From Dehalococcoidia bacterium (lineage in GTDB: Bacteria > Chloroflexota > Dehalococcoidia > DSTF01 > RBG-16-68-14): a DNA stretch of 64,000 nt. The stretch spans positions 241 to 64,240 of the forward strand of contig JBBEBM010000068.1 of the NCBI GenBank assembly GCA_040882355.1. The letters run 5' to 3'. Position numbers and translations under genes: made by a program. Shown in pieces: positions 2,860 to 57,426 of the stretch (position 1 is the stretch's first letter; each line of letters begins with the position of its first letter). Below the pieces are notes generated by a model, which was not told where the DNA came from, ran no database searches, and worked only from the letters and a program-made list of their open reading frames with translations.

Positions 2860-4017
2860 TCAGCCTTTGCGCAAGATGAGTGCGCTGGTGGGGACGACAG
2901 CGGCCGCGGCGACCAGCGCCACCGAGGCGTTGGCCACCTGACATGTCGAGGTGCCGCGGAGCTGGCGCACGCCTTCGAGGACATGGTTGAAGCCGTGGAC
3001 GTAGGCCTCGGAGAGGCTGCCGCCGTGCGTGTTCACAGGGATGTCGCCGTCGGGCCAGTCGATCCGGCCCTCCTCCACGAACGGCCCCGCTTCGCCGCGC
3101 TTGCAGAAGCCGTACGCCTCGAGCTGCCAGAGCACCATCGGGCTGAACACGTCGTAGAACAGCGCGACGTCGACGTCTTCCGGGCCGAGGCCCGCCATCG
3201 CGTAGACATCGCGGGCCGAGTAGAGCGGCGGCAGGTCGAACGGGTCGTCCTTGTAGATCAGCCCGCTCATCATGTAGTGCTGCGGGCCCATCCCCTGCGC
3301 GACGCCCGAGATGTACGCGGGTGGCTGCCTCAGGTCGCGGGCCCGCTCGGCGCTGGTGACGATGACGGCGCACGCGCCGTCCGTCTCGAGCGAGCAGTCG
3401 AGTAGGTGGAGCGGGTCGGCAATGAGGCGCGAGCTGAGCACGTCTTCGACCGTTATCGGGTCGCGGAAGAACGCGCGCTCGTTGCGGGCGGCGTTAGCGC
3501 GCTGGGTGACGGCGACGCGGGCGAACTGCTCCGAGGTCGCGCCGTACTCGATCATGTAGCGGCGGGTGAGCAGCGCGAGCTGCTGGACCGGACTGACGAG
3601 GCCGTACGGCAGCTCGAACGCGGCCGGCCCGCCGACGCGCATACCCGCCTTCGCCCACGGGCGCCCGCCGGAGCCGCGGTTGCGGGCCCGGAAGGCCACC
3701 GCCACCGTCGCCATGCCGCTCGCGACCGCGAGTGCGGCGAGCACGACGGGCGCGCAGCCGGCGCCGCCGCCGTAACCCGCGCCGGCCCAGGCGCGCAGGT
3801 TGGGCGCGCCCAGGTTGCGTGCCAGGTCGAGCTCGCTGACCGACTCCTCGCCGGGCGTCTCTATCTTGAAGATGGCGTCGACGTCCTTCGCCGTGAGGCC
3901 GGCGTCGTCGAGCGCTTCCGTGATCGCGTCAAGCGCCGTCTCCAGCTCGGAGCGGCCGATATTGCGCACGTACTCCGTCGTGCCGATGCCGGCGATCGCC
4001 GTCTTGTCGCGGATCAT
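2860..4017 (-). CDS. SCP2-thiolase-like lipid-transfer protein, Ltp2-type aldolase
   Basis: AIAGIG, GGGAGCA, DCSLETDG, YDVF and NTHGGSLSEAYVHG. Both Ltp2-type Tyr positions appear present. Confidence 0.88.
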   Translation of the reverse strand: MIRDKTAIAGIGTTEYVRNIGRSELETALDAITEALDDAGLTAKDVDAIFKIETPGEESVSELDLARNLGAPNLRAWAGAGYGGGAGCAPVVLAALAVASGMATVAVAFRARNRGSGGRPWAKAGMRVGGPAAFELPYGLVSPVQQLALLTRRYMIEYGATSEQFARVAVTQRANAARNERAFFRDPITVEDVLSSRLIADPLHLLDCSLETDGACAVIVTSAERARDLRQPPAYISGVAQGMGPQHYMMSGLIYKDDPFDLPPLYSARDVYAMAGLGPEDVDVALFYDVFSPMVLWQLEAYGFCKRGEAGPFVEEGRIDWPDGDIPVNTHGGSLSEAYVHGFNHVLEGVRQLRGTSTCQVANASVALVAAAAVVPTSALILRKG

Positions 4018-52518: not shown

Positions 52519-53274
52519 CTAGGTGACGTCCATCCTGTCCAGACGGCGGACCGCGAGCCACAGGAATCCGGCCGTCACGATCACCACGCCCAGGATGCCC
52601 GCGGGGAACTCGATGACCCGGTCGCTCAGCTCCGCAAAGCTCTTGTCGTCGAGGCCGTGCATGATGGCGAGCGTGTAGCCGCGCACGCTCAGGTAACGGA
52701 CGCCGTCGAGAATCGAGCTGATCAGGCCCTCCCAGATCACGACGTACACCAGCGCATACGGAAGCGCGCGCGTGCTGACCAGGCCGGCCCACGTGAACAG
52801 GGCGCAGTAGGCGACGAAGCCGGCGAACAGCGCCACCCCGACGGCCAGCGTGGCCTGGAACGTGCCATCCAGTTCCACGATCCTCGCGCCAGGGCCGCTG
52901 CCACCGACGAGGGTCGCCGTTAGGCCGCTCACGATCACCAGCGGACAGCCGACCGCAATCGCCGCCAGCAGCTTCGCCGAAACGATTCGCAGGCGCGAGA
53001 TCGGCTTCAGCACCAGGAAGCTCAGCGTCCGGTCCTCCACCTCGTTGCCGAACGCCGCTGTTGCCAGCACCATGCTGACGATCGGCATGATCGTTCCGAT
53101 CAGGAGACCGTCGAGCAGCGTGTTGATGAACTCGCGGTTGGACGTCTCATCTTCGCCGATCGTCGCGGATACCAGGATCGCCAGCCCCACGGGAAGACTG
53201 ACCAGGATCAGCAGAAGCAGCAGGCGGCCTCTGCTGGCGAGCTGACGAAGGGAGAACGTGAACAGCGGCCCCAT
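52519..53274 (-). CDS. ABC-2 type permease
   Basis: Multiple TM segments; EVEDRTLSFLVLKPISR. Confidence 0.88.
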   Translation of the reverse strand: MGPLFTFSLRQLASRGRLLLLLILVSLPVGLAILVSATIGEDETSNREFINTLLDGLLIGTIMPIVSMVLATAAFGNEVEDRTLSFLVLKPISRLRIVSAKLLAAIAVGCPLVIVSGLTATLVGGSGPGARIVELDGTFQATLAVGVALFAGFVAYCALFTWAGLVSTRALPYALVYVVIWEGLISSILDGVRYLSVRGYTLAIMHGLDDKSFAELSDRVIEFPAGILGVVIVTAGFLWLAVRRLDRMDVT

Positions 53275-54216
53275 CTACGTGTCCACCAGGTAACCGAAGA
53301 CGCTCTCGAGCGATTCGTCCAGCGGCTCCACGCGCAGCAGGCGGATCGCGCGGTCGCGGGCCAGGCGCGGGATCGATCGCTGGAGAGCGTCGACGTTCTT
53401 GCTCAGCACGACCAGGGCGCCCTCCCTGTCAACCGCTACCGATTCCACCGCCTCCAGCTCGATGAGCGCCGCCGCCATGGAGCGCGGATCACCGGCGACA
53501 ACGCGTACCTTGTAAGGACGCTCGTCTAGCTTCGCCCGGATGGCGTGGAAGTCGCCGGACGCGGCGAGCTTTCCGCTCACCATCAGAAGGATGCTGTCCG
53601 CCAGCGTCTCGACCTCCTCCAGAATGTGCGAGGAGATGAGGATCGTTCGCCCTTCGGCAGCGAGGCGGTGCATGACCTCCTGAAACTCGATGCGCTGCCG
53701 GGGGTCCGTCCCGTTGAGCGGTTCGTCCAGCAGGATCACCTCGGGATCGTGGACCAGCGTCGCACCCAGCCGGATCCGCTGCCGCATGCCGCGAGAGTAG
53801 GTGCCGATCGCCCGGTCCTGCACGTCGACGAGTCCGACGATCTCGATGGCCCGGTCCACCGCCGGCGCCAGCCGTTCGAGGCCATGCAGGCGCCCGGCGA
53901 ACTCGACGAGCTCCCGGCCGGTCAGCTTCTCGTAGACAGCCTCTTGCTCCGACATCACGCCGACTCGTCGATACAGGTTCGGATTGACGCGCACCGCCTC
54001 CCCCAGCATGCGCGCCGACCCCTCCGAAGGCTTGGCGAGGCCCGCGATCACCCGCAGCAACGTGGTCTTGCCGGCGCCGTTCGCTCCGAGAAGGCCCGTG
54101 ATCCCTGGATACACCTGAAGCGACACGTCATTCACAGCCACGACGTTGCCGAACCACTTCGATAGACGATCGACTTCGATAGTTGGTGTGGCCGTGCCGG
54201 TCGCTGGCCCCGTCAT
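53275..54216 (-). CDS. ABC transporter ATP-binding protein
   Basis: GANGAGKT, YSRGMRQR, LLDEP, SSH. Confidence 0.93.
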   Translation of the reverse strand: MTGPATGTATPTIEVDRLSKWFGNVVAVNDVSLQVYPGITGLLGANGAGKTTLLRVIAGLAKPSEGSARMLGEAVRVNPNLYRRVGVMSEQEAVYEKLTGRELVEFAGRLHGLERLAPAVDRAIEIVGLVDVQDRAIGTYSRGMRQRIRLGATLVHDPEVILLDEPLNGTDPRQRIEFQEVMHRLAAEGRTILISSHILEEVETLADSILLMVSGKLAASGDFHAIRAKLDERPYKVRVVAGDPRSMAAALIELEAVESVAVDREGALVVLSKNVDALQRSIPRLARDRAIRLLRVEPLDESLESVFGYLVDT

Positions 54217-55154
54217 GTCCGGAACCTGCGATAACGCCACCAGAGCACGAACCCCGGTCCAGCAGTGAGGACCACGTACCAGCCGATGGGGACGGCGCTG
54301 GGATGCTCCCTCACGCGCGCGGCGAACTCCGACCCGCTGTCTTCGTCGAAGATCACGTCGCTTACGTGCATCGGCACCTCGGGAAGGGAGAGGAGCGCGA
54401 ACCACTTCGCCGCGTCTCCCGTAACGGGTTCGCACTTCTCTTCGGGAGCGCCGGCGGCCTGTGTCCCTTGCGACTCTTCATCCCCGCACAGCGACAAGAC
54501 GCCGGCGACCGGCAGCGAGACCAGGTAGAGCGCAATGACGATCGCTGCGGCGTACGCCCGACGTGTTGTGAAAGTCGACACAGCCAGGGGGAGTGTCGTG
54601 GCGAAGATCGCAATGACGAGTCCAGCGCTGAGGAAGCGGGGCACATCTAACCAGTTGTCACGTAGGTACTCGATCGGTTCCTCGTCGGCTAGGGTCAAGC
54701 CCCCGAACAAGACGATCTGACCGATCCATACCAGCGCAAGCGTCACCGACAGAAACGCCGCCCAGCGTGCGGCCACGTAGTCCGTCGCGGTCAAGGGACG
54801 CACCAGATACAGATCGATGACTCGGTCTCGGCGGTCCGGGCAAAGCAGCTCTGGAGCGATGGTCGCGGAGAACAGGAACAGGACCACCGCGACGATGCGG
54901 TAGTAGTCGGCATGGGTTGGCAGCTCGTCACCGATCTCGGCTGTTGCGGCGGCCAGGCTCATGAAGACCGCAGGGAACACGACCGCTACAAACAGCAGCG
55001 CCGGGAGCACTTTGGACGGCCAGCCTCGCCCAATCCCAAGCGCCGTGCGCACGCCATCCTGCCAGAGCGCCTTCCGCGCGCGCGTTCGCCCCTGGCGCGG
55101 CCCGTCATAGTGATGGTAGCCGAGGTCGAAGATCTCGCCGCGGGCCTCGCTCAT
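54213..55154 (-). CDS. ABC-2 type permease
   Basis: IFDLGYHHYDGPR, APELLCPDRR..LYLVRPL, TM segments. Confidence 0.88.
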   Translation of the reverse strand: MSEARGEIFDLGYHHYDGPRQGRTRARKALWQDGVRTALGIGRGWPSKVLPALLFVAVVFPAVFMSLAAATAEIGDELPTHADYYRIVAVVLFLFSATIAPELLCPDRRDRVIDLYLVRPLTATDYVAARWAAFLSVTLALVWIGQIVLFGGLTLADEEPIEYLRDNWLDVPRFLSAGLVIAIFATTLPLAVSTFTTRRAYAAAIVIALYLVSLPVAGVLSLCGDEESQGTQAAGAPEEKCEPVTGDAAKWFALLSLPEVPMHVSDVIFDEDSGSEFAARVREHPSAVPIGWYVVLTAGPGFVLWWRYRRFRT

Positions 55155-56059
55155 TCCGGGCTGCTCCGGAAGATGTCGGCGAGTCCCCCACGACGCGGCG
55201 CCAGCCGGCGCAGGCGGACGTCCGCTTCCACAATCGCGTCCCGGATCTCGTCGTACAGCGCCTCATCCGTGAGCTCGACGACGACCGACGAGCCGTCCAC
55301 CTTCCCCTCGATTCCCCTGGTAGCCAGCGCAGCGGCCAGCTCTTCGCATCCGGCGTCCACCTCGATGACGATGCTTGAGGTCTCCTGAGTGAAGCGAGCG
55401 ACCGCTCCCTCTTCGGTGACGTGACCGCCGTCAAGCACGATGATCCTGTCGCAGGTCCGGTCGATATCGCCCATTAGGTGCGACGACAGGAGGACGCTGA
55501 TGCCGGCCTCGTGGCTAGTCCGTCGAATGAGCTCCAGCATCTCCTCGCGACCGCCCGGATCGAGGCCGGCGGTAGCCTCGTCTAGCAGCACGAGGACAGG
55601 ATCGTGCACCAGCGCCTGCGCCAGTTTCACCCGCTGCTTCATGCCCGTGGAGAACTCGTTCAGGGGCCGGTAGCGCTCTTCGTGCAGGCCCACGTGTCGT
55701 AATGCGTCCGCCGCGCGGACCCGGGCCTGGGTCGGCGGTAGCCCGCTGACCTGCGCCATGTGCGCCAGAAACTCCGAGGCGTTGATGGCGGACGGCAGGC
55801 AGTCGTGCTCGGGCATGTAGCCCAGGCGCGCCCGAACCTCCACGGACTCGTAGGCCTTCTGACCCATCACCTCCGCCGAGCCTTCTGTTGGCGTGAGCAG
55901 TCCCAGGAAGAGCTTGATCGCGGTGCTCTTGCCGGCGCCGTTCGCGCCGAGCAGCCCGGTCACTCCTGCGTGGACCTGGAAGTCGACAGCATCAAGGGCG
56001 ATGGTGTTCCCGTACCGCTTGGTCAGACCCTTCGCTTCGAGGAGCGGCGCCGCTGTCAC
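55151..56059 (-). CDS. ABC transporter ATP-binding protein
   Basis: GANGAGKS, FSTGMKQR, LLDEAT, SSH. TATACT 6 nt before the GTG (probably leaderless). Confidence 0.92.
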   Translation of the reverse strand: MTAAPLLEAKGLTKRYGNTIALDAVDFQVHAGVTGLLGANGAGKSTAIKLFLGLLTPTEGSAEVMGQKAYESVEVRARLGYMPEHDCLPSAINASEFLAHMAQVSGLPPTQARVRAADALRHVGLHEERYRPLNEFSTGMKQRVKLAQALVHDPVLVLLDEATAGLDPGGREEMLELIRRTSHEAGISVLLSSHLMGDIDRTCDRIIVLDGGHVTEEGAVARFTQETSSIVIEVDAGCEELAAALATRGIEGKVDGSSVVVELTDEALYDEIRDAIVEADVRLRRLAPRRGGLADIFRSSPE

Positions 56060-56131
56060 GTGCCAAGTATATTCGAGGCTCGCCCTAGCGGAGAACACCT
56101 TGCCCGGTCGGAACGGCCCGAAGTTTGGAGA

Positions 56132-56305
56132 TGGTGGAGACGGGGGAGAATTGAACTTCCCGTCCGCAGTTAGATCAACGGGCCAGCCTGGCCGGCCTAA
56201 GCCCGCGGGTGTGCGGTTGGTGGAGACGGGGGAGATCGAACTCCCCGTCCCCAGTCAGAAGACGGGCCGGCCCCGGTTGCGGGCACGACCTGCGCTCATT
56301 GTGGT
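56132..56305 (-). repeat. Two extra tandem copies of the tmRNA 3' end (T-arm + acceptor strand + CCA)
   Basis: TGGTGGAGACGGGGGAGA..GAACT.CCCGTCC at 56132-56165 and 56218-56250 vs 56306-56339; period 86/88 nt. Confidence 0.92.
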
Positions 56306-56653
56306 TGGTGGAGACGGGGGAGAATTGAACTCCCCGTCCAGAGAAGGGCCGGCCTGAGGTACTACAGGTGTGTCCGGCGGTTCATTCTCGTCCGGTGGGC
56401 CATCGCCGGCCCGGCTTCACCGGATAGAGCCGATGAGACTTAGGCGACCCGTATCGGCGTCAGGCCGTCGCACCTCGACTGATCGTCGCTGCTTCACAGC
56501 CCGTCGAGGAGAGGCTTGTGGGCAACGTCACCGCCTAAGCGGCGAGGGCGAGCTGTTGTTCGCCGGTTAGCTGTTTGCCACCAGTTTAACGAGGCAGCGG
56601 CACCTCGACCTGCACCTCAGGTTCACGCTTCCCTGTCGAACCCTTTCGTCCCC
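56306..56653 (-). ncRNA. ssrA: tmRNA; tag peptide (A)GEQQLALAA
   Basis: 5' GGGGACG pairs with 3' CGTCTCC-ACCA including G3.U; TTCGAC near the 5' end; TAACC-GGC GAA CAA CAG CTC GCC CTC GCC GCT TAG; 348 nt. Confidence 0.96.
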
Positions 56654-56666
56654 AGAGTGCGCCCTC

Positions 56667-56675
56667 AGTATACCA
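56667..56675 (-). promoter_or_regulatory. Extended -10 promoter of ssrA
   Basis: TGGTATACT 13 nt upstream of the mature 5' end. Confidence 0.65.
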
Positions 56676-56697
56676 CGCCGCGGCGAGGGCCTCGCGC

Positions 56698-57426
56698 CTA
56701 CGGGTCGGCGTCGACGGCCACGGGGGCCGTGCCGCCCAGCGCCGGGCTCGTCTCCGCCGTGTCGATCCGCCCGTCCAGCATGCGCACGATACGGTCCGCC
56801 GCGGCCGCGATGGTCGGGTCGTGGGTCACGAGGAGCAGCGTCGCACCGTGAGTGCGCTGCACCTCGCGCAGCACCTCCAGCACGCGCAGGCCGGCTTTCG
56901 AGTCCAGGTTTCCGGTCGGCTCGTCCGCCAGCAGAATCGGCGGGTCGTTGCTCAGCGCCCGCGCGATGGCGACGCGCTGGCGCTCGCCGCCCGAGAGCTC
57001 CGTTGGGCGCTTGTTCGCCTTGTCGCCCAGGTCGACCAGCTCCAGCAGCTCCTGCGCGCGCTGCCGGCGCTTGCCCGCCGAGAGCCCCGTCTCGTACATC
57101 GGCACCTGCACGTTCTCGCTCGCCGTCAGCGTGGGCAGCAGGTTGTGGAGCTGGAACACCAGGCCGATCGTGCGCGCCCGGTAGCGGCTGAGGTCGCGCT
57201 TGTGCGTGATCTCTTCGCCGTTGACGAAGATCTCGCCTTCGTCGGGGCGCTCCAGCGCCGCGATCACGTGGAGCAGCGTCGACTTGCCGCAGCCCGACGG
57301 CCCGGTGAGCGCGACGAACTCGCCGCGCCGCACCTGGAAGGTCGCTCCGTCGAGCGCGCGCGTGCGCCCGTCGTCGAACGTCTTCACGATGCGGCGTACG
57401 TCGATCGCGATGTCCTGGTCACTCAT
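56698..57426 (-). CDS. LolD/MacB-type ABC ATP-binding protein
   Basis: GPSGCGKS, LSGGERQR, LADEPTGNLD, VTHD. Confidence 0.93.
   Translation of the reverse strand: MSDQDIAIDVRRIVKTFDDGRTRALDGATFQVRRGEFVALTGPSGCGKSTLLHVIAALERPDEGEIFVNGEEITHKRDLSRYRARTIGLVFQLHNLLPTLTASENVQVPMYETGLSAGKRRQRAQELLELVDLGDKANKRPTELSGGERQRVAIARALSNDPPILLADEPTGNLDSKAGLRVLEVLREVQRTHGATLLLVTHDPTIAAAADRIVRMLDGRIDTAETSPALGGTAPVAVDADP

Follow-up and report, generated by a model that had tools for sequence, protein, structure and literature searches.

Short tandem units ending in copies of the tmRNA 3' end downstream of ssrA in a Dehalococcoidia bacterium: possible gene-less cassettes at an island attachment site

Tandem ssrA-specific genomic islands with the serine recombinase DsiB are described from Dehalococcoides; according to the accessible parts of that work, the crossover of these islands lies in the T loop and the tail of the dsiB gene overlaps the attachment site (McMurdie et al., 2011, PMC3146451). 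Islands at ssrA restore the gene on integration (accessible text of PMC4383910), and ssrA repeats of approximately 36 nt are usual in Klebsiella islands (10.1101/2020.11.02.365908, in the portion available), with 34–36 nt a usual length for ssrA repeats of tDNA-bounded islands in general. The Islander and Klebsiella surveys drop anything shorter than 2 or 3.5 kb, and Islander additionally needs an integrase (PMC4383910; 10.1101/2020.11.02.365908; available sections of both). Units such as those described below therefore fall below these filters and are invisible to island finders. From another setting, Escherichia coli and its tyrT operon, the existence of a repeat-derived RNA, rtT, is reported (PMC3318445; 10.1101/2024.07.17.603846; excerpts of both). 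A literature search returned no description of ssrA arrays with units below 100 bp; Williams (2002), Williams (2003), and Bosl and Kersten (1991) may describe similar remnants, and the accessible parts of PMC9897764 and PMC5294841 contain nothing on such arrays.

The array reported here lies in a stretch of 64,000 nt (the window) from a genome of the class Dehalococcoidia (G000, 3.33 Mb in 82 contigs). Its features, in window coordinates, are the following.

56653..56306, minus strand: ssrA, the tmRNA gene, with the tag GEQQLALAA (ARAGORN; Rfam RF00023, 142.6 bits)
56306-56339, minus strand: last 34 nt of the tmRNA gene, listed as the third copy in the preliminary description
56218..56305, minus strand: unit 1, 88 nt, consisting of an A/C-rich flank, a GC hairpin, a 13-nt linker, and a copy of the tmRNA end
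56265..56290, minus strand: predicted core hairpin of unit 1 with GGGCCGGCC as its 3' strand (folding; 38 of 300 shuffles equal)
56218..56250, minus strand: 33-nt extra copy 1 of the tmRNA end, whose T loop has one base substituted and another deleted
56132..56217, minus strand: unit 2, 86 nt, with the layout of unit 1 but a 14-nt linker
56178..56206, minus strand: predicted hairpin of unit 2 (folding; 25 of 300 shuffles equal)
56132..56165, minus strand: 34-nt extra copy 2 of the tmRNA end, substituted at one base of the T stem (5' strand)
56110..56131, plus strand: flank past the last copy, likely a relic of the 3' tail of a large serine recombinase gene that abutted ssrA

Re-measurement confirmed the copies at 56132, 56218, and 56306 that had been noticed in the preliminary description, with start-to-start distances of 86 and 88 nt and spacers of 52 and 55 nt. 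The positions and lengths of these three copies stand, but the one at 56306 is the 3' end of ssrA itself according to ARAGORN and Rfam, and therefore only two extra copies, and two units, are present. Genome G000 contains no copy of the tmRNA end beyond these three; from base composition, perfect matches to the last 17 nt would arise by chance 5e-8 times per 200-nt stretch and 0.002 times per genome. A 6,021-nt contig of run X1, possibly the sample of origin, covers positions 55600-56991 with 0 differences and a flat depth of 15.3, and a 540-nt contig of run X2, obtained from a second sample of the same study, covers positions 55795-56334, again with 0 differences. Runs X3 and X4 cover the array in part only. 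Because the array comes out identical, letter for letter, in contigs from two samples of one study, the assembly artefact that had been named as a possible refutation is ruled out and the array is genuine. The six genes flanking the ssrA array are parts of ABC transporters. A four-gene ABC-2 transporter operon (window positions 52519-56071, minus strand) begins 74 nt past the last copy; a TATACT hexamer is located 6 nt ahead of the GTG at 56059, where a leaderless message would fit, although a full promoter was not called. No promoter and no U-tract terminator was called between positions 55900 and 56900.

Comparison of the ssrA downstream regions of relatives, a check proposed together with the initial observation, revealed homologous units of 86–94 nt in three genera, with 2, 2, and at least 5 units. 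The family set comprised 16 genomes, 13 of them with an assembled ssrA locus, and arrays were found in 3 of the 13, namely in G000, G001, and G004, each of which represents another genus. In these tallies, G060 enters as a count only. G000 has 2 extra units of 88 and 86 nt, G004 has 2 of 91 and 92 nt, and G001 has at least 5 of 93–94 nt, a count taken from a gapped short-read scaffold with an N gap in the array. The array is absent from three further genomes of the genus of G001 in which the ssrA locus is present. On the tmRNA tree, the distribution of the carriers needs 3 changes; one origin with losses is possible, since the starred branches force only 1. The spacers of G001 and G004 are homologous at z 4.1–4.8 (0 of 500 shuffles), those of G000 unit 1 and G001 at z 3.3 (1 of 500), and those of G000 unit 2 and G004 at z 3.0 (1 of 500). 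The weaker cross-genus pairs were equalled by 10–22 of 500 shuffles, and all eight cross-genus pairs lie within 0–22 of 500. The two G000 units are only moderately similar to each other (z 2.7); adjacent units within G001 and within G004 are near-identical.

Wider searches were made at the level of the order, the class, and beyond. Among the 150 matches listed for 93 genomes of the order, no further array was found, and the covariance model R1 returned from the same 93 genomes only the training units (63–103 bits) plus tmRNA or island ends (at most 46 bits). A looser pattern matched 31 of 401 genomes in the class sample, with no further array; among the 30 loci, ssrA-type ends were seen only in G000 and G439, as judged by the listed sequence (L120 and the window locus in full). 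Metagenome contigs gave 0 matches to the tandem-unit pattern and 8 matches, without an array, to the single-unit pattern. GTDB-wide, the tandem pattern was found at 46 loci, of which two are the arrays of G001 and G004, two are other tmRNA ends with short, dissimilar copies (L079, L080), and three are repeats linked to tRNA-Ala (L050, L056, L076); the remainder are coding or simple repeats. At these three loci (one Saccharimonadia, two Firmicutes), the tRNA-Ala gene is followed by units of approximately 100 nt that combine a terminator with the tRNA 3' end and that repeat near-identically in L056 and L076. The suggestion that the spacers might be traced in phage-derived sequence did not lead to a source: three scans of viral contigs for attP or the unit (5, 6, and 17 loci) contained no unit, and one prophage record carries a tmRNA with a distal copy (L196, L201). 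A partial version, in which an ssrA-type end with hairpin is followed by a left-arm copy (GGAC, T stem, and the start of the loop) and then by other sequence, occurs in G197, twice in G439, and at L099 (L132 4562, L133 1298, L175, and L099 1307); this search gave seven matches, including two tRNA-Ala terminators and one unrelated sequence, and its reversed control gave two. G439 has two occurrences of the left-arm module, which runs out, 18 nt later, in the final 10 nt of ssrA.

On the transcript, every unit leads from the preceding CCA through 11–15 A/C-rich nucleotides, a GC hairpin with the GGGCCGGCC motif as its 3' strand, and a linker of 13–14 nt to GGAC, the T arm, the 3' strand of the acceptor stem, and ACCA. 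The motif GGGCC(A/G)GCC common to the spacers and the tmRNA, and the ACC(A/G)CA with which the spacers start, are present as claimed in the preliminary description. The same account had divided each unit into approximately 55 nt of diverged tmRNA end and approximately 30 nt of flank, a division that is not established, because past the last 33–34 nt only the GGCC motif resembles tmRNA. In a global alignment, the whole unit runs along the last approximately 88 nt of the tmRNA with a common insertion of approximately 8 nt before GGAC. Against positions −90 to −35 of the family tmRNAs, the spacers of G000 unit 1 and of the G001 units reached z 2.2–4.9, and those of G000 unit 2 and of G004 at most 2.4. 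When the GGCC motif was left out, the similarity to the host tmRNA was gone (791, 1532, 798, 81, and 250 of 2000 shuffles score as high). The best local matches of the spacers to 32 tmRNAs are mostly non-significant (beaten by 82, 46, 12, and 4 of 100 shuffles), and matches to 45 post-CCA flanks are no better than those of shuffles (24, 196, 15, and 82 of 200). Since the upstream part and the flank matches remain at shuffle level, as the local matches mostly do, only the last 33–34 nt of each unit are, judged by sequence, demonstrably derived from tmRNA. Rejected were, accordingly, a spacer that is diverged tmRNA throughout, for which similarity beyond the GGCC motif is at shuffle level, and a spacer copied from one particular post-ssrA flank, which is at shuffle level over the 45 flanks. 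The first bases of the unit resemble the host linker between pk4 and helix 2, which looked striking, or pk4 itself, but shuffles do as well and both derivations were discarded.

A hairpin a few bases past the CCA is the rule at ssrA ends of this order, where 39 of 45 post-ssrA flanks fold at −15 kcal/mol or below within their first 55 nt (median −22.1). The hairpin regions of the units have folding energies of −17.7 to −24.2 kcal/mol; compared with their own shuffles, the unit hairpins are not convincing (25–89 of 300 shuffles fold as well). The GGGCCGGCC motif is present in the units of G001 and G004 and absent from the tmRNAs of these two genomes. The part of the unit outside the tmRNA-end copy is probably a terminator-type flank; as the matches between spacers and flanks are at shuffle level, it is position and stability that argue for this origin.

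Within this order, ssrA is a busy insertion site. Other genomes of the family carry kilobase inserts at ssrA, and the distal copies match 16, 17, 18, 18, 27, and 46 nt. Five of the six true island-distal copies measured in the family thus match only the last 16–27 nt, and none of the family's island-distal copies has the hairpin and linker of the unit. Tandem cargo islands without an integrase are common at ssrA in the family (G002, G003, G006, G010). The unit was not found as the end of a full island, either at the family ssrA loci or in the covariance scan of 93 genomes of the order, and no genome with an island inside a unit array was found. Distal ssrA 3' segments of approximately 90 nt or more were observed in G006, on the far side of a 2.5-kb insert that carries an aminotransferase gene (L032 1272-3808), and in G009, beside a recombinase on another contig (L038 1-361). 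The preliminary description had connected the array with elements that target ssrA, and this connection is borne out by the busy insertion site in the order and by the recombinase-tail-like last flank. Its proposal that the units are scars of successive integration and loss holds as far as this link to ssrA elements is concerned; as ordinary independent scars the units do not qualify, being homologous across genera and fixed in geometry.

The plus-strand frame of the flank past the last copy ends in ERPEVWRWWRR, and the flank is identical to that of L028 in 20 of 22 nt. Eight of the 10 most similar among 56 other flanks belong to loci with a tblastn match to a large serine recombinase, and the recombinase genes of these loci run into the ssrA end on the opposite strand. 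The Pfam domains Resolvase and Recombinase were both detected in L014 and L027, Recombinase only in L007, and no domain in the fragment at L016. In total, tblastn matches to the recombinase at ssrA loci were obtained for ten genomes of the order and one metagenome contig. These resemblances make it likely that the flank at 56110..56131 is the relic of an island formerly located at this site. No ssrA-type recombinase is encoded in the assemblies of G000, G001, and G004 (completeness 94, 82, and 71%); each contains only a distant homologue with 29–32% identity, and one is also present in G008 and G009. The homologue of G000 (G000:C19, L140) is a large serine recombinase of 471 amino acids, approximately 30% identical to the ssrA type, which occurs in 5 of 5 family genomes tested and has no ssrA-end copy inside its locus. 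In all three array genomes, the flank of the last copy is unlike the unit's own flank, and in G001 and G004 it is one and the same strong hairpin. The loop of this end hairpin (G004/G001: L031 1796-1850 and L040 5585-5636, minus strand) contains an inverted copy of the acceptor 3' strand, and its 3' arm recurs just before the first distal ssrA copy of G002 (L033, approximately position 3860).

Copies of a gene's own 3' end were also observed downstream of tRNA genes in the same genome: 101 nt downstream of tRNA Arg-GCG (G000:C18:36693-36769, minus strand), 77 nt downstream of tRNA Ser-GCT (G000:C77:40548-40639, minus strand), and 73 nt downstream of tRNA Leu-TAA (G000:C56:62071-62156, minus strand). 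The Arg and Ser modules include the 5' side of the T stem and have a hairpin of 23–25 nt inserted in the T loop; the Arg module resembles a crippled whole tRNA in which a GC hairpin replaces the anticodon arm. Including ssrA, 4 of 41 genes of G000 have such a module, with controls of 0 upstream, 0 in reverse complement, and 12 of 1640 cross pairs. A GIY-YIG element as the driver of the array found no support at this locus: none of the six GIY-YIG matches in G000 is on the ssrA contig; none of the five GIY-YIG genes inspected in this genome is flanked by tRNA-end copies. At L134, L136, and L139 of G000, small GIY-YIG genes lie between similar palindromic repeats that are unrelated to tRNA ends. 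A CRISPR array was likewise dismissed, given that the spacers are mutually homologous (near-identical in G001 and G004), the locus is flanked by genes for ABC transporters, and Rfam gave no CRISPR match.

The explanation we favour, and to which we assign about an even chance, is that both units belong to one family of gene-less ssrA cassettes of approximately 90 bp that were multiplied by recombination in the core between the T loop and the CCA, their mobility being putative. The right half of the core carried by such a cassette would restore the tmRNA end; a hairpin of the post-ssrA type, probably derived from a terminator, and the linker of 13–14 nt would follow, and the cassette would close with a sequence that imitates the core's left half, that is, GGAC and the 5' strand of the T stem. 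The catalyst may have been an ssrA-specific, DsiB-like large serine recombinase acting earlier or in trans or, alternatively, unequal crossing-over between the 33-nt cores. We infer it indirectly because the carriers are without an ssrA-type recombinase and the assembled contigs showed neither circles or excised units nor a strain in which the number of units differs. Under integration of this kind, each right half, but no left half, would at one time have been the functional end of the tmRNA. All 9 of the 9 extra copies retain the last 18 nt without change, and 5 of the 8 that are readable depart from the host tmRNA in the left arm or loop, a small tally that represents 4 independent copies and consists partly of slips in G runs. 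In G001, parsimony resolves the variants into two haplotypes, ordered A,A,B,(gap),B, only with a unit boundary that falls between the 5' strand of the T stem and the base following the CCA; with the boundary at GGAC, four haplotypes are needed. On this reading, the haplotype switch of G001 falls within the core from T loop to CCA, the region in which the crossover of ssrA islands takes place. Because the last flank is unlike the unit flank, the geometry is one of insertion, with the units between ssrA and an older flank, and not one of plain head-to-tail copying. The intact last 18 nt as opposed to the drifting left arm, the haplotype switch, and the differing last flank together suggest recombination in the core.

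In a precursor fold without pseudoknots, the two extra copies pair with the 5' strand of the tmRNA at 0.00 and 0.03 and with themselves at 0.93 and 0.85. In this model, self-pairing would make the units harmless; they may be tolerated because self-pairing copies would not steal the 5' acceptor strand of the tmRNA, and they presumably have no function for the host. The units are more likely leftovers at a known insertion hotspot than a new RNA. If they are cassettes as proposed, they would be about the smallest that can be borne and multiplied by an ssrA attachment core, and they would provide a record of past island traffic as well as a compact substrate on which to locate where DsiB-type recombinases cross over.

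Other histories of the array have to be weighed against cassettes multiplied at the core. An old, integrase-independent duplication of the last 34–90 nt of ssrA plus flank in the family ancestor, which then diverged, was mostly lost, and was re-expanded neutrally by slippage or by homologous recombination between the 33-nt copies, would agree with the global fit of the unit to the last approximately 88 nt of the tmRNA with its insertion of approximately 8 nt, with the z values of 2.2–4.9 against family tmRNA positions −90 to −35 for G000 unit 1 and the G001 units, with carriers that have no ssrA-type recombinase, with the single origin compatible with the tmRNA tree, and with the recent local amplification indicated by near-identical neighbours in G001 and G004. 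We nevertheless consider it unlikely, because the similarity to the host tmRNA vanishes once the GGCC motif is removed, the flank of the last copy differs from the unit flank in 3 of 3 genomes, and the units of G001 and G004 contain GGGCCGGCC, which their tmRNAs do not. The near-identical neighbours in these two genomes speak against each unit being the separate scar of a full-size ssrA island whose interior was deleted and whose left-end hairpin was joined to the right attachment site. Random deletions, moreover, would not yield 86–94 nt with a linker of 13–14 nt in three genera, and the island-distal copies match 16–46 nt, none of them with the hairpin and linker of the unit. Separate scars are therefore improbable, even though tandem cargo islands without an integrase are common at ssrA in the family and in Dehalococcoides (PMC3146451, accessible parts), the units of G000 are only moderately alike (z 2.7), and the flank past the last copy is a likely island relic of this kind. 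The nearly whole T-arm site kept in the copies, and the left-arm copies of G197, G439, and L099 that enter foreign sequence at the T loop as if recombined, could be taken as signs that the host keeps the units as spare or decoy attachment sites, which divert elements from the working ssrA. A decoy, however, would gain little where island integration restores ssrA (PMC4383910, available text). With left arms that are degenerate and no island found inside such an array, we regard decoy sites as very improbable indeed.

A minihelix of acceptor stem and T arm with the G3.U70 pair is, in engineered form, a textbook substrate of alanyl-tRNA synthetase (AlaRS). The units might be co-transcribed with the tmRNA and processed, by an RNase P cut at G1 and 3' trimming to the CCA, into small alanine-accepting minihelices of putative expression, which would serve as sponge or decoy RNAs for SmpB, AlaRS, EF-Tu, or toxins directed at tRNA. 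By prediction, 7 of 7 acceptor pairs including G3.U70 can form in G000 unit 1 and in both G001 types, and 6 of 7 in G000 unit 2 and one G004 unit, as compared with 5 of 7 in the tmRNA end itself; the six unit types thus comprise three with 7 of 7 pairs, two with 6 of 7, and one with 5 of 7 and without G3.U70, and several of their T arms are damaged. Together with two upstream G, extra copy 1 can fold as an acceptor and T minihelix with 7 of 7 pairs, G3.U70, and ACCA. In addition, the unit geometry is conserved in three genera, no consensus terminator is located between ssrA and the units, and the E. coli rtT RNA, which originates from a repeat unit of the tyrT operon, is a precedent (PMC3318445, excerpt). 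We still judge such minihelices to be rather improbable: five of the seven pairs, among them G3.U70, arise automatically from copying the GGACG of this clade, and the extra G's fit a micro-duplication of 8 nt. The T stem or loop is damaged in 5 of 8 readable copies, G3.U70 is lost in one G004 unit, the covariation is non-significant (59 of 500 shuffles, 6 distinct rows), and 10 of the 13 family genomes that have the locus are without units. In the RNA contigs of runs X17, X18, X21, and X22, only tmRNA of near relatives is represented, the host itself is not shown, and the missing cover of the spacers counts neither for nor against expression; at gathering scores, Rfam detected only the tmRNA in the window. 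A shade more doubtful again is the broader idea that mobile micro-cassettes of approximately 90 bp on the ssrA attachment site yield natural alanine minihelices in adjustable copy number, as decoys for SmpB, AlaRS, or tRNA-cutting toxins. If true, the same logic would also explain the self-paired 3'-end modules behind the three tRNA genes of G000, and charged minihelices made from the units would show in nature an RNA that has been known chiefly from experiments in vitro. As the evidence stands, the modest interpretation as gene-less cassettes is likelier than that of charged minihelices.

Compared with the engineered alanine minihelix, unit 1 and the G001 units can take exactly its shape, including the ACCA end, in the predicted fold, but most of the pairing is here a by-product of the tmRNA sequence. 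The tyrT repeats (rttR) are similar to the array in that short non-coding tandem units directly follow a tRNA-type gene and each ends in a copy of the 3' end of this gene. The tyrT units reportedly have a length of 178 bp and contain the 3' end of the tRNA. They differ in gene and phylum; the units described here are half as long, and their RNA product is putative.

With tDNA-bounded islands the array shares a displaced 3' fragment in the same orientation (PMC4383910; 10.1101/2020.11.02.365908; accessible parts of both). An island of the Islander type, with an integrase and a size of 2–200 kb, differs from the locus, where units of 86–88 bp have ABC transporter genes as neighbours (PMC4383910, available text). 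The islands of Dehalococcoides, as far as the accessible parts of their description extend, agree with the array in the host class, the target gene, and the tandem direct repeats of the ssrA 3' end downstream of it (PMC3146451). Both have a recombinase tail at the attachment site, which belongs to a gene in Dehalococcoides and is a likely relic past the last copy here. The Dehalococcoides islands measure kilobases and carry cargo, often with a six-gene module, whereas the units are gene-less, 86–94 bp long, and of fixed geometry; the island repeat comprises approximately 20 bp from the T loop with a non-ssrA motif before it, whereas the repeat found here extends over 33–34 nt and includes GGAC and the 5' T-stem strand (PMC3146451, same parts). 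A DsiB-like module or cargo between the repeats, characteristic of Dehalococcoides, is absent from the spacers of 52–55 nt, into which no gene fits. The array works like the attachment-site repeats of tandem ssrA islands, yet, having no cargo or integrase and a longer repeat, it stands outside that family.
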